From contig JAZKGZ010000016.1 of assembly GCA_040385645.1 (NCBI GenBank), positions 36,935-100,934 on the forward strand: 64,000 nucleotides of DNA. The letters are read 5' to 3'. How positions within the stretch are numbered: the first letter of the stretch is position 1; the number at the start of each line of letters is the position of its first letter. The notes beneath the pieces were generated by a model. The model was given only the letters and a program-made list of their open reading frames with translations. It was not told the origin of the DNA and did not search any database. Both the position numbers and the translations under genes were made by a program. This stretch comes from Pseudomonadota bacterium (GTDB lineage: Bacteria; Pseudomonadota; Gammaproteobacteria; Burkholderiales; Burkholderiaceae_D). This document shows, piece by piece, positions 29,233 through 44,825 of this stretch.

Positions 29233-30764
29233 GGCGCAATCACCGATCCTTGCGCCGCCTGCTGGGCGACGATATCGACTGCATTATTCGCCGCCAGCCG
29301 TACATGCCAGTAAGGATTGAAAAGGCTACCGATTTCCCGTGTTTCGGGGGCAGTGTCGGGCAACGACTGATTGCGCGTGACGCGGTAGCTGGTGACACCG
29401 CTTGTGTAGGAATCGTTGCCATGATTAAACCAGGGCCGTTCGAAATACACTTCGCTGGTTGCCATCGCCGACATCACACCGCCTGCAAGATCGGTCGAAA
29501 ACTTGTTAAGCCTCGGGGACGCCGGGATCGTGGATGCGCCGTCGGATGTACGCACCGCCGTTGCGTTACGTGTCAGCCGCACGGTGAAGCGCAGGCGCGG
29601 ATCGCTATCGTTTTGCATTGCTGGCGAAAGGTCATAAAACGCCGGCATGCCGGTGTAATTTTCCCAGGCATTGGACGATGCTTGTCCATGGGCCTTCGGG
29701 TTGTCCGTAGGCGAGCCGCCTAACTTCGCGCCCGACGCATCTTCCTCCTGGCCAGACGGATAATCTCGTTGCTCGCCCCAGGAAACCTCGTCTTCCTCGT
29801 GCTTGCATTTAAAAGACAAAAAACCGCTTTTTTTCTTCCACTGCCATGCCGATTCGGTATCTTCAGATTTCCACTGATCGAGGCCAACCAAGCTGGTACC
29901 ACCGCGACGCTCAACGGAATTTTTCTTGCCGAAACAAAGGCTTGTTGTAAGCGGCAACACTGCCTTCGACGTCCACTTTCGGCTATCCACGAATTTATCC
30001 GACGCTGCTGCAACGGCCGATACTTCGGCAATACGCGTACGCTCGTCGCCGGTATAGCGCTTCACGAAATTGTTGAACGGATCACCTAGCGCGCCGCCAT
30101 TCGATGTAACAACCGCGTGTACGGCGACCGCCCCATCGCCAGCATAGTTGCGATCGGCCACCTGTTGCATGACGTCGGCTCGCGCCTTCGTGAAATTGTC
30201 CGCGCTATGCAACCACGATTCGGCCGCCTTGATCGCACCCTTGTTTATCTCGACCGCCGATACCGCCGCCTGCGCAACCGGCGGCACGTAGTTGCCGATC
30301 TGCTGAACGATCGGCACGATGGGGTTTTGTGGATAGCTGATGATGTAGCACATCACCGCGTAGAGAGGATCGTAGTTGAGCAGCGCGCCTGCAGCGGCAC
30401 CATAATAATTTTGGCACTCTGGAAATTTGTTCGGCACTTCCTCCACATGCATCTTGGCGTATTGCGCCCACGAAGATAGGCTCACCATTTGCGCTACCAG
30501 CACTTCGTTTGCCACCAGCGCGCGATTGTTGTAAGCATCGAAATTCAGCGCGCGTGCATGCATGACGCCGGCGCTATAAGCGACAGCGTCGGCGGTATTG
30601 ACGAGCTTGGTTTTTTCACCGACGAGTTGGCCGGTATTGAACAGAAAAAACAGCCCGACCAGGCTGCTGACCAACATGAAAATGCCGTAGATCAGTGCCT
30701 GGCCGCGTTGCCGTTTTATATTCCGCGATAATGACCGGCCTGACACGACGCGGGCGGGCTGCAT
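29229..30764 (-). CDS. TadG-like pilus assembly protein (Tad_N domain)
   Basis: RQRG/QALIYGIFMLVSSLVGLFFL followed by NTADAVAYSAGVMHARALN. Confidence 0.7.
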   Translation of the reverse strand: MQPARVVSGRSLSRNIKRQRGQALIYGIFMLVSSLVGLFFLFNTGQLVGEKTKLVNTADAVAYSAGVMHARALNFDAYNNRALVANEVLVAQMVSLSSWAQYAKMHVEEVPNKFPECQNYYGAAAGALLNYDPLYAVMCYIISYPQNPIVPIVQQIGNYVPPVAQAAVSAVEINKGAIKAAESWLHSADNFTKARADVMQQVADRNYAGDGAVAVHAVVTSNGGALGDPFNNFVKRYTGDERTRIAEVSAVAAASDKFVDSRKWTSKAVLPLTTSLCFGKKNSVERRGGTSLVGLDQWKSEDTESAWQWKKKSGFLSFKCKHEEDEVSWGEQRDYPSGQEEDASGAKLGGSPTDNPKAHGQASSNAWENYTGMPAFYDLSPAMQNDSDPRLRFTVRLTRNATAVRTSDGASTIPASPRLNKFSTDLAGGVMSAMATSEVYFERPWFNHGNDSYTSGVTSYRVTRNQSLPDTAPETREIGSLFNPYWHVRLAANNAVDIVAQQAAQGSVIAP

Positions 30765-30799
30765 TGGTGGAAGCCGTGAGTTCGCTAAAACTGCGTCGA

Positions 30800-31138
30800 T
30801 TACTGCGCGCCGGCTGCTGCGCCGGCTGTTTTTGCGGCACCCGTGTAATTATCTAAACCCTTTTTTGCACGTTGTGCATTGGCAAGCGTTGCTGCTTCTT
30901 TAGCTGTCTTCTGCGAATCCGCACCGTCTACACCCCCAACCTCATTCGCGATCGCAGCGGTCTGACTACGCACGACCTGACCAAAAATCTGATACACCGC
31001 AATTGCCGCAACCGCAATGAGCGCCACGATGATGATGTATTCAGTCATGCCTTGGCCCCGCTGAGCACCGGATTGGCGAACTGCGCCAACATATTTTTTA
31101 ATGGAAGCGAGATTTAGCGCGCGCTTGGTCCGGGTCAT
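30800..31138 (-). CDS. flp: Flp-family type IVc pilin with a long leader and an extended C-terminus
   Basis: QRG/QGMTEYIIIVALIAVAAIAVYQIF. It is the first gene of the locus and has a GGAGAG SD. Confidence 0.75.
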   Translation of the reverse strand: MTRTKRALNLASIKKYVGAVRQSGAQRGQGMTEYIIIVALIAVAAIAVYQIFGQVVRSQTAAIANEVGGVDGADSQKTAKEAATLANAQRAKKGLDNYTGAAKTAGAAAGAQ

Positions 31139-31214
31139 TGGTACTCTCCAATTTTTTGTAAAAAACAGCAGGAATTGCTGCTTTATTGATCGGAGAAATA
31201 TACGTATCGCGGCG

Positions 31215-31230
31215 TGCTACCACAACGCCA
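31215..31230 (-). promoter_or_regulatory. Possible sigma-54-type promoter upstream of flp
   Basis: The minus strand reads TGGCGT-tgtgg-TAGCA with GG/GC at the canonical spacing. It lies about 80-90 nt upstream of the flp ATG. Confidence 0.3.
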
Positions 31231-31425
31231 TGCAGTAAGCGTTGAGGAAAAGAAGAGTATTTCTGAGCTTGTTTCCTTGATTAAATTTCTTAAATGTATT
31301 AGTGATCTGTGGATACTAAATCGGCGACGCGGTGATAGTAAGCATGTACACTCTTTCAACCGCTATAATCACGTAAAATTTAGCGCGATAAAAACTAGTT
31401 AAGTTGAAAAATATTGCGTGACAGT

Positions 31426-31752
31426 ATGACAATATACGCGGCGTCGGATTTTATGGTCTCCCATATGTTTTCGGAAAATTCTACGCGGTTGTTAAAAGCC
31501 TTCAAATTTCAAGTGGATCAAGACATGACAGATAAATCAGCCTCGACCGAGCAAATCAGCGATGGTTGGCAGCATGCCGCAGCACGCCTGGATTGGACGA
31601 GCGCGCGTTTCGTGGAGGAAGGCATTCAGTTACAACCGGTGTACGGAACGCGCTATGCAGCCGACTTTATGAAAAATCGTATGATCGATATCGATATCGC
31701 GTTGCGCGTGTTACTGAATCCTGCGCAGCGCCGCAGTTATTCGAACTCTTGA
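31426..31752 (+). CDS. Hypothetical protein
   Basis: ORF in an AT-rich spacer. The start is uncertain. Confidence 0.35.
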   Translation: MTIYAASDFMVSHMFSENSTRLLKAFKFQVDQDMTDKSASTEQISDGWQHAAARLDWTSARFVEEGIQLQPVYGTRYAADFMKNRMIDIDIALRVLLNPAQRRSYSNS

Positions 31753-31816
31753 GCACTCGGGTTACCCGTAGCTTATTTGGGGCGATAGGTGGGATCGATG
31801 TCTGTTTTATATGCCG

Positions 31817-32047
31817 TTACTCGGCTTGAAATTCTGCCGCCGCTTTCGCTGTCCATAACGCTTTTTGATAACTTTCGAACGCTACGTCGTAGCTTTCCAA
31901 CAACCCTTCGTCATTGACGAAACGCGTCCACCAACCGCTTTCGTCTTGCTCAAGAACGATGTCGCCAGGTTGATAAACCGCACCAATTGGATCGCTTGCC
32001 TCCATTGTCACAATATTGACGCCATGATGATTGATGATGGTAGCCAT
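31817..32047 (-). CDS. Hypothetical protein (76 aa)
   Basis: ORF with acidic, protein-like composition. Confidence 0.4.
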   Translation of the reverse strand: MATIINHHGVNIVTMEASDPIGAVYQPGDIVLEQDESGWWTRFVNDEGLLESYDVAFESYQKALWTAKAAAEFQAE

Positions 32048-32152
32048 TCAATACCTGCCTGCAGGAAATTGTTGAAGGCCAATAATACAGCGGGGAACCC
32101 GATTGGACAAATCGGTTCCAGGTTTCGGTCAGATACTTAGTCGGTCACGCAT

Positions 32153-32863
32153 TTAGTTACCTACCTCGAACACATGCCCCTTGTATCGCAACACCGCACC
32201 TTTCTGCAAAATTCTCTCGAGTATCAGGCCAGGCGCAATTTCATCCCCCTCGCGTAGCATGCGTTTATCCACTAGCAACAAGCGCTCTTTCGGATCGGAG
32301 GAATAGATCGAGCCGCTGATGGCAACAGGCGGTACTTCGCTTCGAACCTGCGTTGGTAACTGCGACAATTTCATGGTCTGAGGCTTGGCAACTAAAGGTG
32401 TTGAATCAGGCAGCGTTACGGCAGATGGCAATCGAGCAATCGGGGCAGGCACTGGTAACTGCGACGTTGTAATAACCGTTTCAGGAGCCGGCACCGCCCT
32501 GCCGACTGTTTCGGAAATTGGTGCTGAAATGGCAGGCAGCCTTGGCTCGGTCATAGGTTCGGTCGTAGGTTTTGTCGTAAGCTTAGTTGTAGGCTCCGCA
32601 AAAGGCTTGACCGACCCCAAAGATTTCGAATCGGTTACCGGCACGATTCGAACCACTTGCGTCCACCACACAATTCCCGCTGCTGCGAGGATAGTGAAGA
32701 CAATCGATAACAACCACTTGGCCCAGCACTTGCGCCAATGGCTTTGTCGTGCGATCGACGAAGACGCCACCGAATGAGAGTCACCTTCTGGCAAGTGCTT
32801 GCGTGTCTGACCGGCGTGGCGCTCGGCCTCCGCCTTGTTAAGCGCATCGAGAATGAGCGACAT
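32153..32863 (-). CDS. GspB/ExeB-like protein
   Basis: MSLILDALNKAEAER N-terminus, single TM, Pro/Thr-rich linker, and a C-terminal block SGSIYSSDPKERLLLVDKRMLREGDEIAPGL. Immediately downstream of the ExeA-like gene. Confidence 0.65.
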   Translation of the reverse strand: MSLILDALNKAEAERHAGQTRKHLPEGDSHSVASSSIARQSHWRKCWAKWLLSIVFTILAAAGIVWWTQVVRIVPVTDSKSLGSVKPFAEPTTKLTTKPTTEPMTEPRLPAISAPISETVGRAVPAPETVITTSQLPVPAPIARLPSAVTLPDSTPLVAKPQTMKLSQLPTQVRSEVPPVAISGSIYSSDPKERLLLVDKRMLREGDEIAPGLILERILQKGAVLRYKGHVFEVGN

Positions 32864-32867
32864 GATT

Positions 32868-34649
32868 TTATTTTCTAAACGGTGTTGCCTGCGTGATTGC
32901 TGGCATGGCCGGCATAGCTGATAAATTAGTTGCGATGTCGTCGCCTGTCTGCAGCGTCGGCTCGGCGTCTCCTGCCGCTGCTGCCAAACGCATCAGTGTC
33001 TGAGGCCGGGCAACACCATCTGGAGTCAGACCTTGGGCAACCTGGAACTGTCGTAGGCGTACGTCTAGTATGCGATCGGCGACTGCCTCGGACGGTGGTA
33101 GCAACCCGACTTTTGCGAGCCGGCTCGCGATCCATACGCTGGTAGCGCCTCGCGCAGCTTTCGCGCTGACCGGCGCATACCCGGGCGGCCCACGCCATAG
33201 CGTGGTGAAGCCACCTCGCCAGCGGGTAGCCAACGTATCCAACGCTACCGTCTCGCTTCTTGCGCCCAACTGAATTGTTGCAGTACTGCTGCTCAACCCG
33301 GTCAGCACGGCGTAATACTTTTGACCCTGGTCATCGTAGAGAGTGAGGATACCGGGGCGATTCAATTGGCGAATCTCGGTCAGGCCATTTTTACCGATGT
33401 AGCAGTAGGTATCCTGGCGCTGTGCGGCTGAGCAAGAGCCGCCATCGCCGAGTTGTAACGACCAGAATTTTCCCAATTGACGAAAGGCATTTTGTAGATC
33501 GCGCACGTCGCTGGCAATCGTTACCGGTAGCGGCGACAACGGCGGTGGCGATGGCGAAACCACTGGTAGCGAATTTTGAGACGGGCGTGTCTGCGTCTCA
33601 GTACCCATGCTGTCGAGCGTGCTGCCGGCCGTAGAAAGTTCGGTCGTCATTTCCGAGCGTATCTGAGCCGTATTCGTCAAAGGAAAATTCAGCGAAGGAA
33701 AATTTATAAAAGACAACGTAACTGGCATCGACACCATCACGGCTGCGACACTCCCGAAACCTAGCAACGACCACGCAGCGATGCCGTACCAGAATCTCGA
33801 TCCCGACCTGCGAAGCCGCTCTGGGCCAAATATTTCATGCGCTGCAAGCGTGAGTATCTTCGCATCGACTTGCTGTTTTCCCCGCGCGTAGGCACCGAGT
33901 AGTGCCCGGTCGCTCAAAAGGTTGATGCGCCTCGGGATTCCGGCGGCGAGCCGATGAATGCGCCGCATAATCGATGCACTGAAAGGCCGGCTTCTTGCCC
34001 CACCGGCCACCATCAGCCGGTGAGCGATGTACTGCGCGGTTTCTTTTGCGGACAGCGCTTCCAAGTGAAACCTCGCGATGATCCGCTGCGCCAGTTGTTC
34101 CAGTTCCGGGCGAGCAAGCATCATCCTCAGTTCGGGCTGGCCGATGAGCACGATCTGCAGCAGCTTGCGCTCGTTTGTTTCCAGATTCGTTAGCAAACGC
34201 AGTTGTTCCAGGACATCGAGAGATAGATTCTGCGCTTCGTCGATGATCAAAATATTGTTTTGTTGTGAGGCGTGCGAACGCAATAAAAAAACATTCAACG
34301 CATCGACGTATTTCTTGGCAGTCGTCGCATCAGTGCTAGCAACGTTATCCCCCGAAACAACGATACCGAACTCGTCGCAAATGGATTGCAACAACTCCAC
34401 TGCCGTTTGCTTGGGATTAAAAATGTAAGCAACGTTGCATGTTGCAGGAATCTGTTCCAAAAAAAGACGGCAAACCGTCGTCTTGCCGGCACCGACCTCG
34501 CCCGTCAACAACACGAAGCCGCCACCGCCATCGAGCCCATACAACAGATGCGCCAACGCCTCGCGATGCCGCTGGCTCATAAACAGATAGCGGGGATCGG
34601 GGGCGATCGAGAATGGTTGCTGGTGCAGACCAAAAAAACGCGTGTACAT
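32868..34649 (-). CDS. ExeA/GspA-like AAA ATPase with a C-terminal peptidoglycan-binding domain
   Basis: FFGLHQQPFSIAPDPRYLF, Walker A GEVGAGKTT, and a PG_binding_1-like LRQFQVAQGLTPDGVARPQTLMRL. Confidence 0.85.
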   Translation of the reverse strand: MYTRFFGLHQQPFSIAPDPRYLFMSQRHREALAHLLYGLDGGGGFVLLTGEVGAGKTTVCRLFLEQIPATCNVAYIFNPKQTAVELLQSICDEFGIVVSGDNVASTDATTAKKYVDALNVFLLRSHASQQNNILIIDEAQNLSLDVLEQLRLLTNLETNERKLLQIVLIGQPELRMMLARPELEQLAQRIIARFHLEALSAKETAQYIAHRLMVAGGARSRPFSASIMRRIHRLAAGIPRRINLLSDRALLGAYARGKQQVDAKILTLAAHEIFGPERLRRSGSRFWYGIAAWSLLGFGSVAAVMVSMPVTLSFINFPSLNFPLTNTAQIRSEMTTELSTAGSTLDSMGTETQTRPSQNSLPVVSPSPPPLSPLPVTIASDVRDLQNAFRQLGKFWSLQLGDGGSCSAAQRQDTYCYIGKNGLTEIRQLNRPGILTLYDDQGQKYYAVLTGLSSSTATIQLGARSETVALDTLATRWRGGFTTLWRGPPGYAPVSAKAARGATSVWIASRLAKVGLLPPSEAVADRILDVRLRQFQVAQGLTPDGVARPQTLMRLAAAAGDAEPTLQTGDDIATNLSAMPAMPAITQATPFRK

Positions 34650-34901
34650 GCGCGAAGGCTAGCACGAGGTTGCACAAATGCGCTCTAGATCGGGCACGTC
34701 TTAGGCAGTGATCAAACGGCTATCCGCAACAGGGCCCTTTAACCATACAAAAACTCAATGAGTTTCAACTACGAAAGCGGGTAGACGTTTTCCCATACGA
34801 CTCTTCGCAAGAAAAATTACTAATTCAACAACATCTTTTAAAGTTCGCCCGCTTCGATAAGGTTGCCACCCGGCAGTCCAGCTATTAAAAGAGATGTTCC
34901 G

Positions 34902-35750
34902 ATGTCACCATCAAAGATCGGCGTTGTGCAAAATTTGTGCAGCGCTGTGCATCAGACAATCGTTCCGGCAGTTACGTCACCCGCATTGGCAGTTGCCAGT
35001 GAACTAGGCAGCTTGCCAAACTTGCGAAATTTTATGCAACGCCTGCGGTTTGCCAAACCAAAGGTTCAGGAGTGCGACAATATTAAAATCTTACGTCAGT
35101 ACATGAACATAGATTTGGCGCGGCAAATTCTTGAAGACAATCGCGCTTGCATTTTGCCGCGGGACGCAAATCTTCCGCCGCCAAACTGCGGCATGCTGGC
35201 AATCGTTGCTTACACCGCCGGCCATTTGGACCGACAAATCGCACACATGGAGCAAGTTTCCGCCAACGGCATCAATCGTCCCGAGTTTCGTCAACTTGCT
35301 TCAACCAAGGCGTTAATCGCCGGCACAATTTCAAGAATTCAAAAAACGGATGTTTCCATCGTTCGTCGTAACGTCCAATTTACAAAAGAGACCATTGCCG
35401 GCTATACCCCTGGAAAAACAATTCAATTCGATCGCCTCACCAGTGTCACCTACCACCCGCAACAAGTTTTTACAGGGGGTAATGTAGATTTTGTCATTCA
35501 TACCGCGAACGGCGTCGTATCCATCGACCCTTTGTCACATTTTAAAAGTACCGGATTGCAAACCAACGGCGGCGAAGCGGAGGGCATGCTCGATATCGAT
35601 AGCCGCTACAGTGTGATTGCCATTAATAGCGGCAAAGAAAACGGTAATCCATCGATTGATGAGAATTGTTATCCAACTAAAACGATCGTCTTGCAAGAAA
35701 TCGATACAAGCCAGCACGGTGCCATTTTTGAAGAAACGGCCCACTGCTAA
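34902..35750 (+). CDS. Putative mono-ADP-ribosyltransferase-like protein (R-S-ExE type)
   Basis: Ordered motifs IVRR, then GKTIQFDRLTSVT, then GGEAEGMLDIDSRYSVIAI. They have C3/VIP2/HopU1-like spacing and beta-strand context. No signal peptide. Confidence 0.55.
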   Translation: MSPSKIGVVQNLCSAVHQTIVPAVTSPALAVASELGSLPNLRNFMQRLRFAKPKVQECDNIKILRQYMNIDLARQILEDNRACILPRDANLPPPNCGMLAIVAYTAGHLDRQIAHMEQVSANGINRPEFRQLASTKALIAGTISRIQKTDVSIVRRNVQFTKETIAGYTPGKTIQFDRLTSVTYHPQQVFTGGNVDFVIHTANGVVSIDPLSHFKSTGLQTNGGEAEGMLDIDSRYSVIAINSGKENGNPSIDENCYPTKTIVLQEIDTSQHGAIFEETAHC

Positions 35751-35831
35751 CAAAAACTTACTTCAGTTTTGCAACAATGCTTGCCACAAAAAAGTGCGAT
35801 AGTGGGGCATCGACGCACCGGAGGCATATTC

Positions 35832-36074
35832 GTGAAATATTTTTTCATTCTGATTTGTACATATTTCTGCATCAATTCGGCAGCGCAAGCCCAAGTTTAT
35901 TTCAACTCAGGCAGTGCCAAACCGCAAAACCCGGAAAGCATGAAACGCGAGATCGGGCAAGACCACGCGACAAAACGTAAAGAGCGCGCGAAACGGTTGC
36001 TGGTGCGTTGCCAGGATGGGTCGCGCCATACCACCCGGGTATGCGCCCGTCATGGTGGCGTAGCCGGCCGCTAG
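35832..36074 (+). CDS. Small secreted DUF3761-like protein
   Basis: GGAGG followed by a GTG start. Signal peptide VKYFFILICTYFCINSAAQA. C-terminal CQDGSRHTTRVCARHGGV resembles the DUF3761 C-x-DG...C-x-x-HGGV signature. Confidence 0.55.
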   Translation: MKYFFILICTYFCINSAAQAQVYFNSGSAKPQNPESMKREIGQDHATKRKERAKRLLVRCQDGSRHTTRVCARHGGVAGR

Positions 36075-36151
36075 CACAAAGCTGCCGTCAGGCAAAATGC
36101 GCGTATAGTTGGAGGTCATTTTTTTACCGGTCAGATTTGATCGCTCCGTGC

Positions 36152-36805
36152 ATGCCGCTTGCCACGTCTTCTGTAATCACTTCTGCAATTGAGCGCTCAG
36201 GCCTGTCGGTCGTAGCCATATTCTTGCTCGCAATACCCGGTCTGAGCTATCTACAATGGCTGCAAGACCCTTCGCTCGCACAGGAAAATGGTGTGCTCGA
36301 ATGGCTTCAAGTCAGCATGATCCTGTTCGCCTGCGTCATGCATTCAGGGCGTGCAGGCCAGCTTGACAGATCGTCGCTGCTGTTTGTAACGCACGCCGGT
36401 TTGGCCCTGCTGACTTACTCCTTCGCATTGCGCGAACTCGACTTCGAACAGTTTGGCAGCTCCCCGCTCTGGTTATTGCTGGAAAAAAGCTTGCGCCTAA
36501 TACGCACCGTATTGTGGCTTGGATTTTTCATGTTGATGTATTTTCGAATGAAAGTGATCTTTTCCCAGCGGGCTTTCCTGTTCCGACTCCCGGTCGTATG
36601 GATGAGCCTCATCGGCGGGTTATTTTTGATTGCGGGTGGTCTTTTCGACAGGCAGGTTTTCTCCAACATTGCGCAACCTAGCTCGCGCTTTGCGGAGGAA
36701 GTGCTCGAGCTGAACGGTTATTTCATGATTCTCGCCGCGACTTTTTTTAGAAGTGCGACAAAACCGACTGCGGCACGTGTTGCGCATGTCGGACATGTTG
36801 AATAG
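36152..36805 (+). CDS. Integral membrane hypothetical protein
   Basis: Several hydrophobic helices. I trimmed the start to the first ATG after the upstream stop. Confidence 0.5.
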   Translation: MPLATSSVITSAIERSGLSVVAIFLLAIPGLSYLQWLQDPSLAQENGVLEWLQVSMILFACVMHSGRAGQLDRSSLLFVTHAGLALLTYSFALRELDFEQFGSSPLWLLLEKSLRLIRTVLWLGFFMLMYFRMKVIFSQRAFLFRLPVVWMSLIGGLFLIAGGLFDRQVFSNIAQPSSRFAEEVLELNGYFMILAATFFRSATKPTAARVAHVGHVE

Positions 36806-36935
36806 GTATTGAAGCTAAGTATCTGCGCTCTGTGGCACACATAACTATCGCATGTGCATATCCGCCACAGATTCCACCGGATACATAGGTCTGGCAATAT
36901 AATTTGCCAGCACAAACTCGATCCGGTTCATTGAC

Positions 36936-38240
36936 ATGTCTTCGCTGCCCGTTGCAACGCCTTCTCGTCACATTCCATTTGCAGCGCCGCGTGCAGAAAA
37001 ATTTGCCACAACATTTGCAAAAGTCTCACGCAAACGTTCGGCTTTCAACACGTTGCCATTGATATGCGTCGTGGTGGCAGCAGGTTGCGCTACACCACAG
37101 CGCCCGCCGACCGTTGGCGTGAAGGCACCCTTGCCTGTTTTGGCACCAGTGGTTGCGCCCGCAACTTTGCCGACGCCGACCTTGCCGCCTTTAACGAATC
37201 AGAGCCCGATCGGCGTCGGCGTCAATCCGCCGTCACCAGCCGCGACTTCTGCTACGTCACCGCCTGATACACCACAGCCTGCAACATCAACGGTAGCCAC
37301 GCCGGTGCCGGCCACAGCACTCGATGCTAAAGCCGCATTGCTGCAAGCCTGGGTGAACCAGCAACAGCGCCTGTATCAGGTTGCCGCGCCGCTGTTACTA
37401 AAAAATACCGACTTATGCCCGGCACAGTCGCGCCGCATTCTCGGCTTTACCGCAAAAAACCGGTTTTCTTATTCGAACGATTTCGCGGATGTGGCCCGGC
37501 AGGTGCTGGGTCTGGACGATCAGCTTCAAATAACCAGCGTACTACCTGGTAGCGGCGCGATGCTGGCTGGCATAAAACCGGGCGACATTCTTCTGGCGGC
37601 TGGCGGCAAAAACTTGCCGACAGGGCCGAACGCCGAGCGTGCATCCAGCAGCATCATTGCCGAATCGATCCAGGGTAATGCCCCGATCGAGCTGACCGTA
37701 CTCAACGGCAGCGACACCACCATCGTCGAAGTCGTGCTCACGCGCGCGTGTGCGGTCGCAATCGATCTCGGCAACAGCGATGATGTCAATAGCCATGCCG
37801 ATGGCCGCCGCGTGATGGTAACTCGAGGAATGCTTGGGTTTGTACGCTCGGACGAAGAACTGGCGTATGTGCTGGCGCGGGAAATTGCTGCCAATATCAT
37901 TTCGCCAACGCCTAGACCTGCGGTCAGTACCGTGATCGATCGCTTGCATACGCTCAGCATCAACACCGCACCGACGCCAGACGAAGCGCCCATTCCATCG
38001 ACGACCTCACCTACCGACGCATCCGTTGAAAAGCTTGCGCTATATATGCTGGCCCGGGCCGGATATGGCATCGACGGCGTGGCAGCTTTCTGGGAGCGGC
38101 TCAATGCAGCATTCCCTGCCGATATCCGTAACAGCCATGCTGCAACGCATTCGCTGCTGTCCGAGCGCTTGAATGTCATTGCCCAAACGACGCAAGCTAT
38201 CAAAAATAAGCAAAAAAGTGGCGTGCCGCTGCGACCTTGA
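36936..38240 (+). CDS. Lipoprotein with a PDZ domain and an M48-peptidase-like region that lacks the HExxH histidines
   Basis: Lipobox VVAAGC, PDZ-like ITSVLPGSGAMLAGIKPGDILL, and ELAYVLAREIAANI where M48 enzymes have ELAxVLxHEIxHV. Confidence 0.6.
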   Translation: MSSLPVATPSRHIPFAAPRAEKFATTFAKVSRKRSAFNTLPLICVVVAAGCATPQRPPTVGVKAPLPVLAPVVAPATLPTPTLPPLTNQSPIGVGVNPPSPAATSATSPPDTPQPATSTVATPVPATALDAKAALLQAWVNQQQRLYQVAAPLLLKNTDLCPAQSRRILGFTAKNRFSYSNDFADVARQVLGLDDQLQITSVLPGSGAMLAGIKPGDILLAAGGKNLPTGPNAERASSSIIAESIQGNAPIELTVLNGSDTTIVEVVLTRACAVAIDLGNSDDVNSHADGRRVMVTRGMLGFVRSDEELAYVLAREIAANIISPTPRPAVSTVIDRLHTLSINTAPTPDEAPIPSTTSPTDASVEKLALYMLARAGYGIDGVAAFWERLNAAFPADIRNSHAATHSLLSERLNVIAQTTQAIKNKQKSGVPLRP

Positions 38241-38297
38241 CCTAAAGAATCGCAAAAACCTGGCGTTAACGAGGTACAGATCACCAGGGAGGCGGCA

Positions 38298-38495
38298 ATG
38301 AATCTCACAGGCGTTGCAAATCTTGCAACCAGTATGTCCGATACCGGTACCGATCAAGCAGTCGGTATGGCAGTGTTAAAAAAAGCGCTGGATAGTGAAA
38401 CCCAAACGGCTGCCGCCCTGCTGCAGGCGCTGCCGCCCGTTCCCAGCACCCGTTTGCCGCCAAATCTAGGGCAAAACATCAACACGAAGGCTTGA
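38298..38495 (+). CDS. YjfB-like putative motility protein
   Basis: A 65-aa protein: SMSDTGTDQAVGMAVLKKALDSETQTAAALLQAL....NLGQNINTKA. Confidence 0.6.
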   Translation: MNLTGVANLATSMSDTGTDQAVGMAVLKKALDSETQTAAALLQALPPVPSTRLPPNLGQNINTKA

Positions 38496-38650
38496 TCCAC
38501 GGTCATTGGAAAAGTCGCAGATCCACTGTCAACACCGAATTTTAAGAAAGATTTCGGGAAGTAACTAAGTTGTTCGCGGGATGCATATTGATCGCGAACA
38601 ACTACTCCTAACATGGGGTCTCACGAATCCTCCCGGAAGTGAGTTCAACC

Positions 38651-39334
38651 ATGAAACTGTCTCTCCCAAGTTTAACCAACTGCTTTGAAAGCGCGCCCAA
38701 GCCGTTTGATGAAATGAAGCTGAGTAAAGCTGAAGTCAAACAAAAAGTGGCGGAACTGAAAACCAACGGATTTTTCAGTATTCCCATCTCTGAAACGACT
38801 CAAAGATATCTTCACAATACAAACCAAGGCAAAGGCAATTCGGAAAGTCAGTGGGAGGCTAAATCGACTGGGACAGAATTAAAGCTGCCTAAGTCCTATA
38901 ACGAGATTGCCACGCGCATGGCAACGGCAGTGATATCCAAAGTGGCGGATCAGAAAGTTCATCTCGAGACGCAGGAATTTCAAATTCGGCGGCCTGGACT
39001 CACTCCCGCCGACAGATGGCATCAGGATAGAAACCCCAAGGTACTTACCTGCCTAGCTACCCTCGAGGGCCGTGGCACGGAATATGTCACACCAGCGCTA
39101 GCGAGAGCAACATTCAAGCATATCGATGACAAGATCACACCGATCGAAATGCGTAAGGGTCGCATACTGTGCAAGGAAGACATCAAAACCTTCAAAAAAG
39201 ACAATTTTTACTTTATCGCCTCACGCTCAGACGTCACCGAATCAATACCAAAATTAGTGCACAGAGCGCCGGCATATGACCATAAAGAGCTAAGCGAACG
39301 GGCGATATTTTTGTCACGTTGGCGGCCAGTTTAA
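38651..39334 (+). CDS. Hypothetical protein with an HxD...H cupin-like motif, possibly DUF1826-like
   Basis: ADRWHQDRNPKVLTCLATLEGRGTEYV and KLVHRAP...RAIFLSRW. The assignment is tentative and from memory of the family signature. Confidence 0.45.
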   Translation: MKLSLPSLTNCFESAPKPFDEMKLSKAEVKQKVAELKTNGFFSIPISETTQRYLHNTNQGKGNSESQWEAKSTGTELKLPKSYNEIATRMATAVISKVADQKVHLETQEFQIRRPGLTPADRWHQDRNPKVLTCLATLEGRGTEYVTPALARATFKHIDDKITPIEMRKGRILCKEDIKTFKKDNFYFIASRSDVTESIPKLVHRAPAYDHKELSERAIFLSRWRPV

Positions 39335-39354
39335 TTGGATCAAGAAAGCGCAGC

Positions 39355-39480
39355 ATGTCCAGCGAGCATATTCCCAAACTGGTCCATCGGGCACCGTCAT
39401 TTGCACTTGGAGAACAATCTGACCGCTCGATTTTTATCGCTCGGTGGAGCGCGCATCCGCTGAGTGATCCGTTGTTTTGA
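39355..39480 (+). pseudogene. Orphan 41-codon fragment paralogous to the C-terminus of the preceding gene
   Basis: My translation is MSSEHIPKLVHRAPSFALGEQSDRSIFIARWSAHPLSDPLF*. It aligns with ESIPKLVHRAPAYDHKELSERAIFLSRWRPV* at the end of 38651-39334. Confidence 0.45.
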
Positions 39481-39558
39481 GTGGAGTTTGCGGCTTGTCG
39501 TCGTCCAAAGACACTTGCAAGAAAACCCAATCTGTAGCTTATAAGTTACAATACGCCG

Positions 39559-39882
39559 ATGATCGAAATCTTTCGGTACGTACATGAAAATGGGCAAGAG
39601 CCTTTTACAAAATGGCTTTCAAGTCTTCGTGACAATGTTGCGCAAGCCAGAATTCGCGTTCGGATACGCCAAATCGAGTCAGGTAATTTTGGTGATTGTG
39701 AAGTAATAGGAGAAGGGGTATCGGAACTGCGAGTGCATGTCGGCGCAGGATATAGAATTTATTTCGGGCGGCATGGCAAAGCGGTCGTACTTTTGTTGAT
39801 GGGTGGTGACAAACGTACGCAACAGGCTGATATTAAACAAGCAAAGAAATGCTGGGCTGAGTGGAAACGGAGCCAGAAATGA
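39559..39882 (+). CDS. Type II toxin, RelE/ParE superfamily (addiction module killer type)
   Basis: FTKWLSSLRD..ARIRVRIRQIESGNFGD.EVIGEGVSELRVHVGAGYRIYF....VVLLLMGGDKRTQQADI. Confidence 0.85.
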   Translation: MIEIFRYVHENGQEPFTKWLSSLRDNVAQARIRVRIRQIESGNFGDCEVIGEGVSELRVHVGAGYRIYFGRHGKAVVLLLMGGDKRTQQADIKQAKKCWAEWKRSQK

Positions 39883-40208
39883 CGAAACTCAAGAATATGG
39901 TGTCGCACCACGAACAAGAAATTGCCGAATTGCAGGCCGACAAAGATATGGCGGTGGAGTATTTGAAAGCTGCCATGGAATCGTTAGACGACCCAAATAA
40001 CCGAGCCGGTGGTCTATTGGCCTTGCGCACGATTGCTGAAGCTTACGGCGGTTTGGCAGTCGTTGCTGCCGAGGCTGGCATTAGTAGAGAATCGCTGTAT
40101 CGGGCTCTATCAGCAAAGGGAAATCCGACTTTGAAAACGTTACTAGCGGTTTTGAAAACAGTTGGCATGCGCTTATCGGTAGAGGCAGAACTGCCGGTGA
40201 CTGCTTAG
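39879..40208 (+). CDS. Cognate antitoxin (addiction module antidote, HTH)
   Basis: ATGA overlap with the toxin gene. YLKAAME...LLALRTIAEAYGGLAVVAAEAGISRESLYRALSAKGNPTLKTLLAVL. Confidence 0.85.
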   Translation: MTKLKNMVSHHEQEIAELQADKDMAVEYLKAAMESLDDPNNRAGGLLALRTIAEAYGGLAVVAAEAGISRESLYRALSAKGNPTLKTLLAVLKTVGMRLSVEAELPVTA

Positions 40209-40444
40209 AAGTTCAATGTATAACGTCTGGAGGGCAGTTTTAATCCGGGGCGCTTCACAGCAACAACTTTCCTATTCTCAGGAAGCGCCCCGCGAACCCA
40301 TGGGGCTAACGTTTCCCAACCGGCGGAGCCCACCGCCCTCACGGTGGCGGCAACGCATCGATCGTGAGCGAGGTAGTGCTCAAAAGCTGCGCCCTTCCGC
40401 TCCAGCGAGTAGTTGGGTTCCTGGCCTGCATAGCTTGCAGGCAA
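40205..40444 (-). mobile_element. Probable remnant of an IS3-family transposase OrfA (HTH region)
   Basis: The 79-aa ORF contains YSLERKGAAFEHYLAHDRCVAATVRAVGSAGWETLAPWVR. This resembles the YSxEFKxxA...SVAxVARxxG....L..WV pattern. No OrfB or inverted repeats were seen. Confidence 0.35.
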
Positions 40445-40518
40445 GTCGAGCCGTCGTTCATATTCACTGTATCAGCCCTCAAGGGAATCCTTGCTTGGCC
40501 AATTCGCACAGCAAACCG

Positions 40519-40830
40519 TTAAACCGCTTCTAATTCCACATGCACACGTTGCCCCATCATTGTCGCAATGTTTACCAAAGCATCGAGAGAAAATCTTGAT
40601 ATGCGCCCTCTTAACAAATCGTTTATGCGAGGCTGGGTTACGCCGCACCGCTTCGCCGCTTCTGCTTGTGTCCATTCGGTTGTTCTGACAATGGCAATAA
40701 TTTTCCGCATCAATTCAGCACGGGTTTGCATGTTGGCTGCCTGCTCTGGCGTATCAGCAATGGCATCCCATACGTTGTCATAGGTTTCTGTATTGCTCAC
40801 GATTTGGCTTTCGTTATTTGCAATAGTCAA
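40519..40830 (-). CDS. XRE-family HTH antitoxin-like protein
   Basis: VWDAIADTPEQAANMQTRAELMRKI...WTQAEAAKRCGVTQPRINDLLRGRISRFSLDAL. Confidence 0.75.
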   Translation of the reverse strand: MTIANNESQIVSNTETYDNVWDAIADTPEQAANMQTRAELMRKIIAIVRTTEWTQAEAAKRCGVTQPRINDLLRGRISRFSLDALVNIATMMGQRVHVELEAV

Positions 40831-41041
40831 GTTTCAGCGATCTCTAAATCTTGCTTCGATGTCGTTTGCGTTTTTTTGGAAAACGCACTTGCCAATCGAA
40901 CGTAACGGTTTTTTGTTGTTTCCTGGCGAGACCGTAGGCCAATCGTCCCAGGAAAGCCTTATACAAACAGGACAATCACTGCGCGATTTTCTTCGAAGCC
41001 TTGGAAAATTTGTCCGTTGACACTTTTCCGTGGATTGACAT
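40831..41041 (-). pseudogene. Degraded RelE/HigB-superfamily toxin gene upstream of the XRE antitoxin
   Basis: One frame gives MSIHGKVSTDKFSKASKKIAQ*. A shifted frame continues SDCPVC...KCVFQKNANDIEARFRDR*. These match the N-terminal (K.FSK.A.K.GI) and C-terminal (FAKNE.ANI..EL..FR) signatures of the toxin family usually paired with this antitoxin type. The gene is interrupted by a stop and frameshifts and is much shortened. Confidence 0.4.
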
Positions 41042-41042
41042 G

Positions 41043-41978
41043 CTAACTTGCGTATGGACCGCGTCCGATCGTCGCCTCAATTCGAACCTGTAGCGCTTGC
41101 CGAAAGTCGTTTATCTTAGTCTCGTTCCAAGTTGTGAACCGGTACTGACGGTTGTCAAAATGGACTTCTTTTAATTCATCTTCTTTGACAGTCCAGATTA
41201 CCGGTCGTCCAAGGCCAAGGGCAAACCCGGCTTCAAAGTAAACTCCGCCACGGTGGCCTGTGAAATCGGCGATGACAAATCGGGAGCGCCGAATATTCGC
41301 CAAAATTTCATCATCAATTTTATTGTTGTGCTCGACATTGTCGATTCGGATCGGTTTGTACCCCGCACCTCTTATCGCAGGCTCTATCGCATCAACCCAT
41401 AGAAACGTTATTTCGCTCGAAAACCACATCGCGCAAAAACCTGAATCGAGTTCGGTGCCGCCTTTCGATCTTTCGTCCAGATGGTTATGCCCATCGGGAG
41501 TGATCACCACACCAAGGCCGCTATTGGTGCTGTTATCTTCGAGCCATTTCTTGCTCTTGGCTAAATATTCCCGGGCTAGATACCAAATTTCACCGAAGTT
41601 TGCGGACCAAGTCAACGCTTGGACTCGCCGGCCCTCGTCTGAATCTTCCTTTAAATTAAACTGCGCTGCGACTCCTGGTGATGCGTCCACGATGATACGC
41701 AGCAGTCTTTCGGCCCGCTCTCCGACGCTTGGTGGTTTTGCGGTGCGGATGCTGAGTACATCGTCAGATCCTACAAGCATTTCTTGGTTTTCTCGCATCC
41801 ATCCACGAGCGTTCGCTAAATCTCTTCCAAGAACAATTGGGTGGCTTATAAACATCTGCTCAGCAGTCCCGACAATCCTGTATTTCCCGCAAAATGCGCA
41901 ATTTATCTCTGAAAGGTCTCCGGCACTGAAGCCGGTTTTAATGTCATAACGACAGACTGGACAGGTGCTTTTTGCCAT
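41043..41978 (-). CDS. Zn-ribbon protein with a C-terminal nucleoside 2-deoxyribosyltransferase-like (NDT/TIR-like fold) domain
   Basis: N-terminal CPVC-x17-CAFC. The C-terminal domain reads FCAMWFSSE...IEPAIRGAGYKPIRID....IDDEILANIRRSRFVIADFTGHRGGVYFEAGFALGLGRPVIW. This matches the hallmark D-x-T/G...V-x-x-E-x-G-x-A-x-x-x-G-K/R-P-V of the NDT superfamily. Strong GAGGAG SD. Confidence 0.65.
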   Translation of the reverse strand: MAKSTCPVCRYDIKTGFSAGDLSEINCAFCGKYRIVGTAEQMFISHPIVLGRDLANARGWMRENQEMLVGSDDVLSIRTAKPPSVGERAERLLRIIVDASPGVAAQFNLKEDSDEGRRVQALTWSANFGEIWYLAREYLAKSKKWLEDNSTNSGLGVVITPDGHNHLDERSKGGTELDSGFCAMWFSSEITFLWVDAIEPAIRGAGYKPIRIDNVEHNNKIDDEILANIRRSRFVIADFTGHRGGVYFEAGFALGLGRPVIWTVKEDELKEVHFDNRQYRFTTWNETKINDFRQALQVRIEATIGRGPYAS

Positions 41979-42072
41979 ACAACTCCTCGTTGCAGTTAAA
42001 CGTCAAACTGACAGTATATGGAGAATGTTGCCGGCGGCGTTTTCCAGATCATCCGAATGGCCTCGCAGCTCC

Positions 42073-42083
42073 GGGGGGGGGGG
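42073..42083. repeat. Homopolymeric G11 tract (C11 on the minus strand)
   Basis: Read directly: ccGGGGGGGGGGGaaatc. It lies about 95-105 nt upstream of the ATG of the minus-strand gene 41043-41978. Confidence 0.95.
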
Positions 42084-42225
42084 AAATCGTCGAGCGGGCC
42101 GCATGTTGACGATCACCCAGAACTGATCCACTTTGGGCAGTAAATTTCATCCAAATTTGACCCACGTGATTGAATCGCCTGCTTAATGGTTAAGCAGAGC
42201 AAAAAGGAGTGATCACAGTGGGCAT

Positions 42226-42315
42226 ATTAGCCAACATCGGCTACAGAGTGACCGCGCTCGGTCACTTGATTGATTGCTTCTACTTTAAATTCCGGTGAAT
42301 ATCTTGGGGAGCTCA
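42226..42315 (-). mobile_element. N-terminal remnant of an IS3-family transposase OrfA
   Basis: AGGAGG SD followed by MSSPRYSPEFKVEAINQVTERGHSVADVG*. This is the typical IS3/IS911 OrfA N-terminus, truncated after 29 codons. Confidence 0.55.
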
Positions 42316-42483
42316 TCGACTTCCTCCTATGGCTAAATCGTAGGGCAGGATTGTCTACCTGAGTGGGGAAAGTCCACTCATGGCATAGTTGCGGTTTTAC
42401 TGCTTCATTCTTTACTCGCGATCACCTAGCCTCACCGCCTACTGCCGGGCAATGCATATCTAATTTTAAATTTTGGATTAACA

Positions 42484-43350
42484 TTGAAAAAAATACGTTT
42501 CCACTACTTTACAATCACCAAGACCGGGACACCGAAAACGCTTGCAGACGTGTTCGCAACGTTAGCCGCGGCAGATATTGGTACAAAAGTAAAAGAATGC
42601 AATTACTCTAAAATTGCACTGGATCACATTGAGCAGATCGGCCCGTTGCCTAGTCCGATATGGGTGATGCGGTTTTCGCGATTGCGGGAAGATAACTGGC
42701 CTGGCGTAACGACGTTAAATGATGTTTCAAAGGATCTTGACCTTGATCAAGATTCCTTCTTGTCCGAAGATACTTATGTTCTTTTCGACACGGAGCAAAA
42801 TAAAGTTGTTGTTCAATATAACCACATCGGTGTTCGGCCAGGAAAAATACAGGAGTACCTCTCTCAATGGGTTGACTTCTCTTCAGGCGGTTATCGTTTG
42901 TTGCCAGTGTTCACAAATGACACTATGGCTAAGTATAAAGCGAAGCAAATCGTAACTTCGGTCGAAGTTGCAATCGACGGAATAACTCCAGAGGACCTTA
43001 CGTATTTCAACGGCGGTGGGCTCATGGCGGCTGTGAGTGGTGCCGTCAATTCAGATGCAGTGAAGATGAAAGTAGTATTTTCGGTTGACGCACGTATTAA
43101 AACCACCCGTTTAAAGCGAAGTTTCGTAACTGATTTGGTGGAAAAAGTAATGGGCCGCGGCGGTGAAGATGACAAAATAATCGTCCACGCTAAAGAAGAA
43201 GAGTCTGATGCTGTCGAGTTGTTAAACTTACTGGAGTCCAGAAAGTGCGTTGAATATGATGGCGATAGTGTCCCTCGCACTTCTGGTCGCCGTCTTGATC
43301 CAGACACAATGTTTCAGATGCTTAGGCAGGCATACAGGGAATGGGTTTGA
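42484..43350 (+). CDS. Hypothetical soluble protein (288 aa), family unknown
   Basis: A long ORF in AT-rich DNA with a TTG start. No catalytic or binding motif recognised. Its stop overlaps the next gene's start. Confidence 0.6.
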   Translation: MKKIRFHYFTITKTGTPKTLADVFATLAAADIGTKVKECNYSKIALDHIEQIGPLPSPIWVMRFSRLREDNWPGVTTLNDVSKDLDLDQDSFLSEDTYVLFDTEQNKVVVQYNHIGVRPGKIQEYLSQWVDFSSGGYRLLPVFTNDTMAKYKAKQIVTSVEVAIDGITPEDLTYFNGGGLMAAVSGAVNSDAVKMKVVFSVDARIKTTRLKRSFVTDLVEKVMGRGGEDDKIIVHAKEEESDAVELLNLLESRKCVEYDGDSVPRTSGRRLDPDTMFQMLRQAYREWV

Positions 43351-43811
43351 TTGCATTAAATAGATTTTGGGAACGAAGGTATCCAACGCTTATTAGCGTT
43401 GCCGTGGCAGCCATTGCCTGGTATTTCGGACTTAGGTTTGATGTTTCTCGAATATCAAATCAGCTGTCGTCAACGATCAACATTTCAGCTATTTTGATGG
43501 GGTTCACTGGCACTGCAAATGCGATGCTTTTATCATTTAATTCGAAAAAATTTCTGGCAATACGTGCAAATAAGAATCTTTGGTACCTCCTTTTGACATA
43601 CTTTCGGTCGTCGCTATGGGCCGCAATGTTTGTTTGTTTCTACTCTCTTTTGCTGTTTTCGATCGATATTACAAAAATTCCCCTGAGTATTAATTATGGC
43701 GCGCAGGTAGAGCCATTTCTGATGCCTGTTTGGATAGGCAGCGTCGTCTTTGCCCTTTTGAGTTTCTTCCGACTTTTACGCGCGGTATTCGGGATATTGA
43801 AGGCCGAATAG
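43341..43811 (+). CDS. Small four-TM membrane protein (156 aa), family unknown
   Basis: Four hydrophobic helices: TLISVAVAAIAWYFGL, INISAILMGFTGTANAMLLSF, LWAAMFVCFYSLLLFSI and FLMPVWIGSVVFALLSFF. 10-nt overlap (ATGGGTTTGA) with the upstream ORF. Confidence 0.6.
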   Translation: MGLIALNRFWERRYPTLISVAVAAIAWYFGLRFDVSRISNQLSSTINISAILMGFTGTANAMLLSFNSKKFLAIRANKNLWYLLLTYFRSSLWAAMFVCFYSLLLFSIDITKIPLSINYGAQVEPFLMPVWIGSVVFALLSFFRLLRAVFGILKAE

Positions 43812-44172
43812 ATTCCAACCAATTTTCTAAATTTTTACGAATGCGACCAATCTTTTGGGGCATTTTTCAGTTTTTAGGAAATATTTTTTGCAGTAGGGTG
43901 GTTCTACAGCTTGTATCACGTCCACCTCGAACAGCAAGCCTGGCGGCACTTCAATTAATGAGACCCTAAATATCAGGATTGAAAGCCTCGCCGACCGTCA
44001 AAAAGTGGCTGCTGATGTGGAGCGGCCAGTCAAGCCAGGTAATGCTGTGTTAGTCGATGAGCTACAGACACAGGGCAAAATATATGCTATCAGCATCTAA
44101 ACCGGATTTTAAATGGCACAGGCTACCAGTGCCGGCGCATCTTATAACCGTTTTAGGATGTGCCGCGAACCG

Positions 44173-44196
44173 TATCTTGTGATCGATCACAAGATA
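44173..44196. repeat. 24-bp perfect palindrome
   Basis: TATCTTGTGATC|GATCACAAGATA, read directly. It lies 14 nt beyond the stop of the minus-strand 93-aa gene. Confidence 0.9.
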
Positions 44197-44209
44197 AAGG
44201 CCAATTCAT

Positions 44210-44491
44210 TCAAACGTAAACTGTTTTGATATTATTTTTAATCATCTCGCCAATGCTCGCCACGCAGTTACCGTTACGCGCTCTGTTAGCGTAGAGCCGC
44301 AGGTAATATTTTATGCCGACCCCATTGCTAGGCGTCGTCGCAATAGATTTCATTCCCTCAGCCGAGATTTGATAGTCGCCGCAATCCGGTTTTGAGCATC
44401 TAAACAGCTGGTTGCTATGGGATATAAATTCTTGAAACGTTTTAGATTTGCTACACAGAAAGCAATTTTCTGTATTACCTGTGTTAGTCAT
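44210..44491 (-). CDS. Small Zn-ribbon protein (93 aa)
   Basis: GGAGTG SD. CFLC-x18-CSKPDCGDYQISAEGM resembles the N-terminal Zn-ribbon of 41043-41978 (CPVC-x17-CAFCGKYRIVGTAEQM). Confidence 0.55.
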   Translation of the reverse strand: MTNTGNTENCFLCSKSKTFQEFISHSNQLFRCSKPDCGDYQISAEGMKSIATTPSNGVGIKYYLRLYANRARNGNCVASIGEMIKNNIKTVYV

Positions 44492-44622
44492 TTTTCACTC
44501 CAATGAAGATGAAGTTATAAATGCTATTCCAGAAAAGCATAGCCGTGTGTCACTGTTTTGAAGGTGTCTCAGATTTGTGGAAATTGGCCAGCTAATAGCT
44601 ATGATTTTAAAATCGTTGGCAG

Positions 44623-44647
44623 AAAAAAACGCGCCCAAAGGCGCGCA
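44623..44647 (-). terminator. Rho-independent terminator after tRNA-Ser
   Basis: The minus strand reads GCGCGCC-TTTG-GGCGCGT followed by T7. Confidence 0.7.
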
Positions 44648-44660
44648 TTTACTTATTTCC

Positions 44661-44751
44661 TGGCGGAGAGACGGGGATTCGAACCCCGGATAGGCTATGA
44701 ACCTATACACGCTTTCCAGGCGTGCGACTTCAACCACTCATCCATCTCTCC
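44661..44751 (-). tRNA. tRNA-Ser (anticodon GGA)
   Basis: The 91-nt minus-strand sequence is GGAGAGATGGATGAGTGGTTGAAGTCGCACGCCTGGAAAGCGTGTATAGGTTCATAGCCTATCCGGGGTTCGAATCCCCGTCTCTCCGCCA. It folds with a 7-bp acceptor stem, anticodon stem CACGC/GCGTG, loop CTGGAAA, a long variable arm, a GGTTCGAATCC T-loop and an encoded CCA. Confidence 0.95.
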
Positions 44752-44825
44752 TGATTTCGCTTGCGCGCCAGTCGGCGTTTTGCGAAGCCGTGGAGTATAG
44801 CAAAACTTTGGCTGTTGCCGACGGT

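Follow-up and report, generated by a model that had tools for sequence, protein, structure and literature searches.

We analyzed two overlapping genes in a 64,000-nucleotide (nt) stretch of contig JAZKGZ010000016.1 (GenBank assembly GCA_040385645.1, forward-strand positions 36,935 to 100,934), which comes from a Pseudomonadota bacterium and is called the window here; coordinates are positions in the window unless another sequence is named. A first-pass annotation had described the pair as two open reading frames (ORFs) with a 10-nt overlap, and this was confirmed directly from the sequence. The features of the pair are as follows.

42484-43350, plus strand: rexA-like gene with a TTG start, encoding a cytosolic DUF6731 protein of 288 amino acids (aa; 32.5 kDa, isoelectric point (pI) 5.5) with a predicted RexA/RdgC-type two-domain fold.
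43341-43811, plus strand: rexB-like gene with an ATG start, encoding a basic membrane protein of 156 aa (pI 10.2) with four transmembrane (TM) segments.
43341-43350, plus strand: 10-nt overlap ATGGGTTTGA of the two genes, read directly in the sequence.

The ATG of the 156-aa gene falls within the last codons and the TGA stop of the 288-aa gene. This overlap suggests translational coupling and a fixed stoichiometry of both proteins, and the two genes probably form one translationally coupled module. The 288-aa protein begins with MKKIRFHYF, and homologues at 43-56% identity share an MKKI(K/R) start and align over the full length, so the TTG start is credible. Both ORFs are intact and of full length relative to their homologues.

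The first-pass annotation had regarded the 288-aa protein as unassignable and had stated that its proposal of a novel system would be refuted if the protein confidently matched a family that had been named before. Such a match was found with the Pfam family DUF6731 (PF20505; E 2.2e-23, 83.6 bits against a gathering cut-off of 27), in which residues 2-284 were aligned to profile positions 4-287 of 295. The protein also matched phrog_10865 (E 7.6e-22), and the identical protein in the NCBI entry of the metagenome-assembled genome (MAG) carries the label 'DUF6731 family protein'. All of the relatives that we sampled (103/103) match DUF6731 as well. In an exhaustive profile search (E <= 1e-3), the family amounted to 1065 clusters at 50% identity. 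One metagenome protein from the Joint Genome Institute (P0002), which is 56% identical to the 288-aa protein and matches DUF6731 over its full length, is labeled 'rhodanese-related sulfurtransferase' at its source, an apparent mis-annotation. NCBIfam gave no match to either window protein. A comparison of the DUF6731 profile with PDB sequences returned a Maf/ASMTL match alone (E 0.036), which was judged spurious.

The conservation of the pair was analyzed in a pool that combined the first homologous loci, genome loci, viral loci and loci found by a degenerate DNA pattern for the motif QYNHFGVR. An hmmsearch over the pooled loci identified 33 DUF6731 ORFs in 28 distinct loci. In 27 of the 28, a same-strand multi-TM ORF of 136-165 aa was present at the 3′ end of the DUF6731 gene, with gene junctions between -58 and +9 nt. 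The first homologous loci all carried a gene for a homologous membrane protein of 141-162 aa after the DUF6731 gene, and the pairing persisted at 22-26% identity between the soluble proteins (hereafter the A proteins; the membrane partners are the B proteins). Because both genes have full-length homologues and the pairing recurs in 27 of 28 distinct loci, the pair is more than a chance arrangement. The co-conservation of the two genes across genomes, which the first-pass annotation had proposed as a check, was thus observed.

In Streptococcus phage Javan1 (MK448665; locus L015), a 165-aa multi-TM partner ORF that is unannotated in GenBank (4706-5203 of L015, ~17660-18157 of MK448665) lies 9 nt 3′ of Javan1_0027, a DUF6731-like gene, and immediately precedes the gene for the small terminase. 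The sole DUF6731 locus without a partner (L014, 5863-6672) belongs to the MAG of a sponge symbiont, Candidatus Tethybacter castellensis. Its A protein is shortened (269 aa), and stop codons crowd every frame over the next 680 nt; the locus is probably a copy that is decaying in the genome of a symbiont.

The relatives occupy both phage and chromosomal contexts. In L005, an S24-type CI-like repressor gene is followed by one gene, the DUF6731 gene and the TM gene, and this group is transcribed divergently from a set of lambdoid early genes that includes YdaT and NinB. This layout is that of lambda cI-rexA-rexB and was also seen in four loci of RexA homologues. L001 is located beside terminase and portal genes and L002-L004 beside an integrase gene, and several DUF6731 matches came from viral contigs of IMG/VR. 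The 114 ORFs flanking the pair in 20 loci matched HTH_3 (4), phage integrase (3), a resolvase and a Mu-like DUF1804 protein, and were otherwise housekeeping genes. Single flanking ORFs matched a SIR2-type pAgo-associated protein and pAgo (E down to 1e-221), a type I restriction enzyme, PDC-S65, PbeA and RmrA; this list of defense genes is descriptive and was drawn up without a background rate. Some DUF6731 copies sit in defense islands.

An AlphaFold2 model of the 288-aa protein (predicted local distance difference test score (pLDDT) 68, predicted template modeling score (pTM) 0.62) was compared with the PDB by Foldseek. The best match was lambda RexA (8TWQ; E 6e-5, prob 1.00, 259 of 288 columns), and the next matches were RdgC (2OWL, the third-ranked entry, E 1.4e-2) and CENP-N. 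According to the paper on the RexA structure, the structural relatives of RexA are RdgC and the kinetochore proteins Iml3/Chl4 (PMC11077077), and the follow-up fold matches of our model are these same relatives. In the model, residues 3-141 comprise seven strands as well as helices; they are followed by a middle block of four helices and strands 159-165, 194-200 and 231-235, and then by a C-terminal part with a low-confidence 'swivel' segment (238-253), a fourth strand (255-259) and a helix (273-287). The order of these elements agrees with the published RexA topology. Structure prediction followed by a Foldseek search, which had also been proposed for the candidate novel system, pointed to a known system.

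Profile comparison pointed in the same direction. When the DUF6731 profile (103 sequences) was aligned to a RexA profile (24 sequences) with hhalign, the score was 31.6 (P 1.1e-3), with 218 collinear columns from residue 1 of both. The reversed RexA alignment scored 12.6 and 20 column shuffles scored no more than 19.5, and the result was stable across subsets of the alignments.

In its AlphaFold2 model (pLDDT 78), the 156-aa protein folds into a membrane bundle of four helices (2-29, 38-65, 78-107 and 124-154), with a short loop helix at 69-76. Hydropathy agrees with the model, and the four hydrophobic helices that had been recognized earlier were confirmed by both. From the loop charges (central loop +4, external loop -1; positive-inside rule), the topology is predicted to be N-in/C-in, as has been described for RexB and Sbash gp31. 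The central loop (residues 64-81; net charge +4), which would be cytoplasmic, is conserved, and the best-conserved block of the partner family consists of TM2 and this loop.

Members of the partner family were recognized by an existing RexB model. The PADLOC RexB hidden Markov model (HMM) matched 11 of the 27 partner proteins (best E 5.5e-5), and no other model matched more than once. The 156-aa window protein matched the HMM of a second subfamily of partners, the 'SGY-type' (E 1.8e-12); between the two subfamilies, the alignment probability is 99.6%. The SGY-type subfamily was in turn aligned by hhalign to a RexB profile built from five sequences (P 2.4e-5, prob 76%, 107 columns), and the alignment of the B family to RexB spans TM1 to the central loop. 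The whole partner family scored 28.7 against RexB, with reversed and shuffled controls at no more than 17.8, and the cross-controls (A against RexB and B against RexA) scored ~11. As judged from these profiles, the 156-aa protein is homologous to RexB through a transitive link. In a fold search of viral proteins (Foldseek, BFVD), the best match of the A model and that of the B model both came from the uncultured siphovirus ctylc9. The third-ranked match of the 156-aa model was a 165-aa protein of Mycobacterium phage Sbash (prob 1.00, TM 0.53-0.56, E 0.07, a weak match), which was equated with Sbash gp31, a protein of 165 residues with four TM domains (PMC6426606), by organism and length alone.

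Because two proteins that are always encoded together, apart from the decaying L014 copy, point independently to RexA and RexB, we consider it likely that the gene pair forms an abortive-infection (phage exclusion) module of the RexAB type that has diverged strongly. The earlier view of a two-gene module of abortive-infection type, with a soluble protein and a small four-TM protein, gains support from the RexAB homology. In contrast, the view that the system is undescribed was abandoned, as both components trace to lambda RexA and RexB.

The same evidence bears on the alternative that the pair is unrelated to Rex and shares its architecture alone, as a Kiwa-like pair, a TM effector of the CBASS, Pycsar or retron type, a toxin-antitoxin pair or a holin-like pair, with the Rex likeness arising by chance or convergence. 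The independent convergence of two components on one known system, with clean reversed, shuffled and cross-controls, argues against it, although neither window protein directly matches a RexA or RexB HMM and the profile link on the A side is weak. The weak partial matches to PDC-M67A (PADLOC; E 3.9e-7, residues 94-165), among them that of the 288-aa protein, could be read in favor of such an unrelated system; the PDC-M67B model did not match the 156-aa TM protein, and a literature search for PDC-M67 found no paper. Kiwa shares with the window pair a small four-TM protein and a soluble protein of ~300 aa. However, neither DUF4868/KwaB nor KwaA was matched in Pfam or PADLOC, the order of A followed by the TM gene is opposite to kwaA-kwaB, and no Kiwa structure appeared within the top 50 PDB fold matches. 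A TM-effector module of CBASS, Pycsar or retrons was rejected on the grounds that neither the pair nor its immediate neighbors contained a cyclase or reverse transcriptase match (PADLOC, Pfam), and PADLOC gave no other match to the pair. The analogies drawn in the first-pass annotation to CBASS, Pycsar, retrons and Kiwa were therefore not upheld, and we regard an unrelated system as the least probable of the explanations weighed here, with very little chance of being correct.

Several observations nevertheless weigh against a RexAB-type module. The model of the A protein was built from 10 sequences and is of moderate quality (pLDDT 68), and its global template modeling score (TM-score) to 8TWQ is 0.30. 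A hinge and a swivel loop connect the two domains of RexA, which was crystallized in a closed state, whereas the AlphaFold prediction is open; the low TM-score is plausibly due to this difference between hinged domains. The profile link between DUF6731 and RexA, at P ~1e-3, corresponds to a probability of 16-21%. Single-sequence hhalign comparisons with lambda RexA and RexB were not significant, and a signal emerged only when whole families were compared as profiles. The RexA models (Pfam PF15969, PADLOC) matched neither the window protein nor any of the 103 family members, and the RexB models (Pfam, PADLOC) gave no direct match to the 156-aa protein. Near the window pair there is no CI-like repressor and there are no phage genes, and no integrase was found among the larger ORFs scanned in 27.6-44.8 kb. 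When the surroundings of the pair were scanned for promoters and terminators, no signal assignable to the operon exceeded the shuffle background, and a literature search for DUF6731 found no paper mentioning the family. Finally, the Rex-like pair of phage Butters has reversed roles (PMC12894663). Homology therefore leaves the mechanism unfixed, and a reversed logic is kept as a rival explanation below.

The comparison with lambda RexA/RexB (PF15969/PF15968; 8TWQ) showed both likeness and divergence. In both systems, a soluble A protein (279 aa in lambda, 288 aa here) is followed on the same strand by a four-TM B protein (144 versus 156 aa), and the window pair fits the general RexAB arrangement of an adjacent, co-oriented A (~280-370 aa) and B (~140-180 aa). 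The A protein has RexA as its top PDB fold match and aligns with it collinearly as a profile, the B family matches the RexB HMM, and some relatives lie directly downstream of a CI-type repressor. In contrast to lambda RexA, the A protein belongs to a separate Pfam family, DUF6731, with no direct sequence-model match. The two genes overlap by 10 nt here and are separated by a 15-nt gap in lambda, the window A gene starts with TTG, the window copy is outside a prophage and without a repressor neighbor, and its host is an uncultured Pseudomonadota MAG. Location in an immunity region beside a CI-like repressor is thus absent in the window and present in some relatives (the contexts of L001-L005); even among published Rex-like systems, this location is not universal (PMC11077077).

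A further proteobacterial precedent is RexABpp of Pseudomonas putida prophage P1 (PP_5643/PP_5644; PMC12894663). Like the window pair, RexABpp lacks BLAST-level similarity to lambda Rex; it was recognized by HHpred and a structure match to 8TWQ (PMC12894663). Its B protein also has four TM segments and its genes are tightly spaced (~2 nt, as judged from primer sequences). RexABpp was shown experimentally to be an abortive-infection-type defense in which membrane damage is triggered by A and depends on B (PMC12894663). Unlike the window pair, it belongs to a prophage, where a CI-like repressor precedes it, and the terminal residues of PP_5643 had no match among the 200 proteins that we collected. 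Mycobacteriophage Sbash gp30/gp31 and Gordonia phage CarolAnn gp44/gp43 are likewise two-gene Rex-like defenses. Their effectors have four TM segments and 165-178 aa, and they need the central cytoplasmic loop to function. Both systems differ from the window pair in their larger A proteins (370-372 aa), which are linked to DUF4747 rather than DUF6731, and in their actinobacterial hosts. RdgC, a recombination-associated DNA-binding ring dimer (2OWL), shares the RexA-type domain scaffold, but it is a housekeeping gene without a membrane partner and a weaker fold match than RexA.

On this basis, abortive-infection-type phage defense is most likely the function of the pair and the one best supported by our analysis. 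The mechanism below is carried over from the characterized systems of lambda, Sbash, CarolAnn and P. putida (RexABpp), and experimental precedent exists in equally diverged Rex-like pairs (PMC12894663, PMC6426596, PMC6426606). The DUF6731 protein would be a RexA-fold cytosolic sensor or activator, probably dimeric and with non-specific DNA binding. Upon infection it may be triggered by a phage protein or by a replication or recombination intermediate, and would then switch on the co-translated four-TM RexB-like protein. The RexB-like protein would oligomerize in the inner membrane and depolarize or permeabilize it, which would collapse ATP and macromolecular synthesis and halt phage growth at the cost of the growth of the infected cell. 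The 10-nt overlap would keep the A:B ratio fixed, a ratio that is important for lambda Rex and for RexABpp.

In the reversed logic, as in Butters gp30/gp31, the cytosolic RexA-like protein would be a toxic antiviral effector and the membrane protein would sequester it until infection. The homology evidence is common to this arrangement and to that of an A sensor with a B effector, Butters provides a direct precedent for it (PMC12894663), and tight translational coupling also fits a toxin with a sequestering partner. However, the membrane protein is the effector in four of the five characterized Rex-like systems (PMC12894663), and the best-conserved block of the B family, TM2 and the central loop, is needed for defense in Sbash gp31, as would fit an activated channel or effector. 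We therefore regard the reversed logic as unlikely.

The surroundings of the pair in the window contain toxin-antitoxin-type genes, a TIR-like gene and two tRNA genes.

39559-39882, plus strand: Gp49 (HigB-like) toxin ORF, with a 22-nt overlap with the HI1420-type antidote ORF.
39861-40208, plus strand: HI1420-type antidote ORF, forming a toxin-antitoxin-type pair with the Gp49 ORF, upstream of the rex-like pair.
40519-40830, minus strand: HTH_37/XRE protein of 103 aa, toxin-antitoxin-type, upstream of the rex-like pair.
41043-41978, minus strand: zinc-ribbon and TIR-like protein of 311 aa, divergent from the rex-like pair.
44661-44751, minus strand: tRNA-Ser(GGA), with the acetyl-CoA synthetase gene beyond it.
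49423: tRNA-His, beyond the acetyl-CoA synthetase gene and ~5 kb past tRNA-Ser.

GC content is 0.42-0.45 over 42500-44499 and 0.55-0.62 in the flanks, and the lowest-GC bin of the 30-50 kb profile is 43500-43999. The first-pass annotation had placed the pair in the AT-richest part of a tRNA-flanked island. The low GC content was confirmed, whereas the region is adjacent to one tRNA rather than flanked by two, because tRNA-His sits past the acetyl-CoA synthetase gene. No repeat of the 3′ end of tRNA-Ser (att-type) was found in 30000-44800. The window pair is located in a small low-GC islet by tRNA-Ser together with toxin-antitoxin modules and the TIR-like gene, and no prophage is recognizable.

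These surroundings, and the fold matches described above, bear on a further explanation, in which the pair is a prophage accessory for lysogeny or superinfection. The RexA-like protein would then modulate a repressor switch or recombination, and the window copy would be what is left, in inactive form, of a prophage that has decayed. Independently of RexB, the RexA protein of lambda biases the CI/Cro bistable switch (PMC11077077), and RdgC, a RecA regulator, and CENP-N are the next fold matches of our model. The lack of phage context around the window copy and the loss of the partner gene in one relative (L014) would also be compatible with such a role. However, both window ORFs are intact and of full length, and there is no repressor at the window locus to act on. 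Moreover, the partner is kept in 27 of 28 loci, including chromosomal sites outside prophages, which argues for selection on a two-gene function rather than a repressor-linked role. An accessory role in lysogeny is accordingly very unlikely in our judgment, and the RexAB-type module remains our preferred reading of the locus.

In agreement with the first-pass annotation, the immediate neighbors are defense- or toxin-antitoxin-like, namely the Gp49/HI1420 toxin-antitoxin pair, the HTH_37 protein and the zinc-ribbon and TIR-like gene. The 311-aa protein encoded by the last of these combines a Cys-rich, zinc-ribbon-like segment at the N-terminus with a C-terminal domain resembling TIR or nucleoside 2-deoxyribosyltransferase. 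It matched the PADLOC 'TIR effector' (E 1.3e-14) and phrog_16139 (E 3e-39), and Pfam Nuc_deoxyrib_tr below the cut-off. The gene did not recur among the flanking ORFs of the related loci (20 loci), and it is probably a separate single-gene defense candidate. Between the pair and tRNA-Ser, a Cys-rich 93-aa ORF (44210-44491, minus strand) showed weak PHD/IBR zinc-finger-like Pfam matches (E 1e-3 to 4e-2). Directly 3′ of tRNA-Ser on the minus strand, a T-run follows a GC-rich hairpin (GCGCGCC-TTTG-GGCGCGT); this element (44627-44650) is probably the terminator of the tRNA gene. Farther away, a GspB-like gene (T2SSB domain) lies beside a GspA-like gene (AAA_22, peptidoglycan-binding and C39-like) at 32153-34649 on the minus strand, and a Tad/TadG-like pilus-assembly protein is encoded further upstream, at 29229-30764; these genes for secretion and pili are ordinary and have no relation to the pair.

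As of 2026, only five RexAB-like systems had been described (PMC12894663). Our result is an advance in annotation rather than a new biological principle, and for the window locus it replaces a 'novel system' with a specific, testable annotation. Through the link to RexA and RexB, DUF6731 and its unannotated membrane partner gain a functional hypothesis. Rex-type modules would also be present outside prophage immunity regions, and many diverse homologues become available for comparative and structural work. More tentatively, and with the odds against it, DUF6731 and the small TM partner may represent a large unrecognized branch of a RexAB superfamily that has spread to stand-alone chromosomal defense islets and to phages of Gram-positive bacteria and is possibly mechanistically distinct. 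Relative to lambda Rex, members of such a branch might respond to another trigger, lack the link to a repressor or have their roles reversed as in Butters. If this were true, Rex-type abortive infection would be a widespread family of bacterial defenses that extends beyond a few prophage cases.

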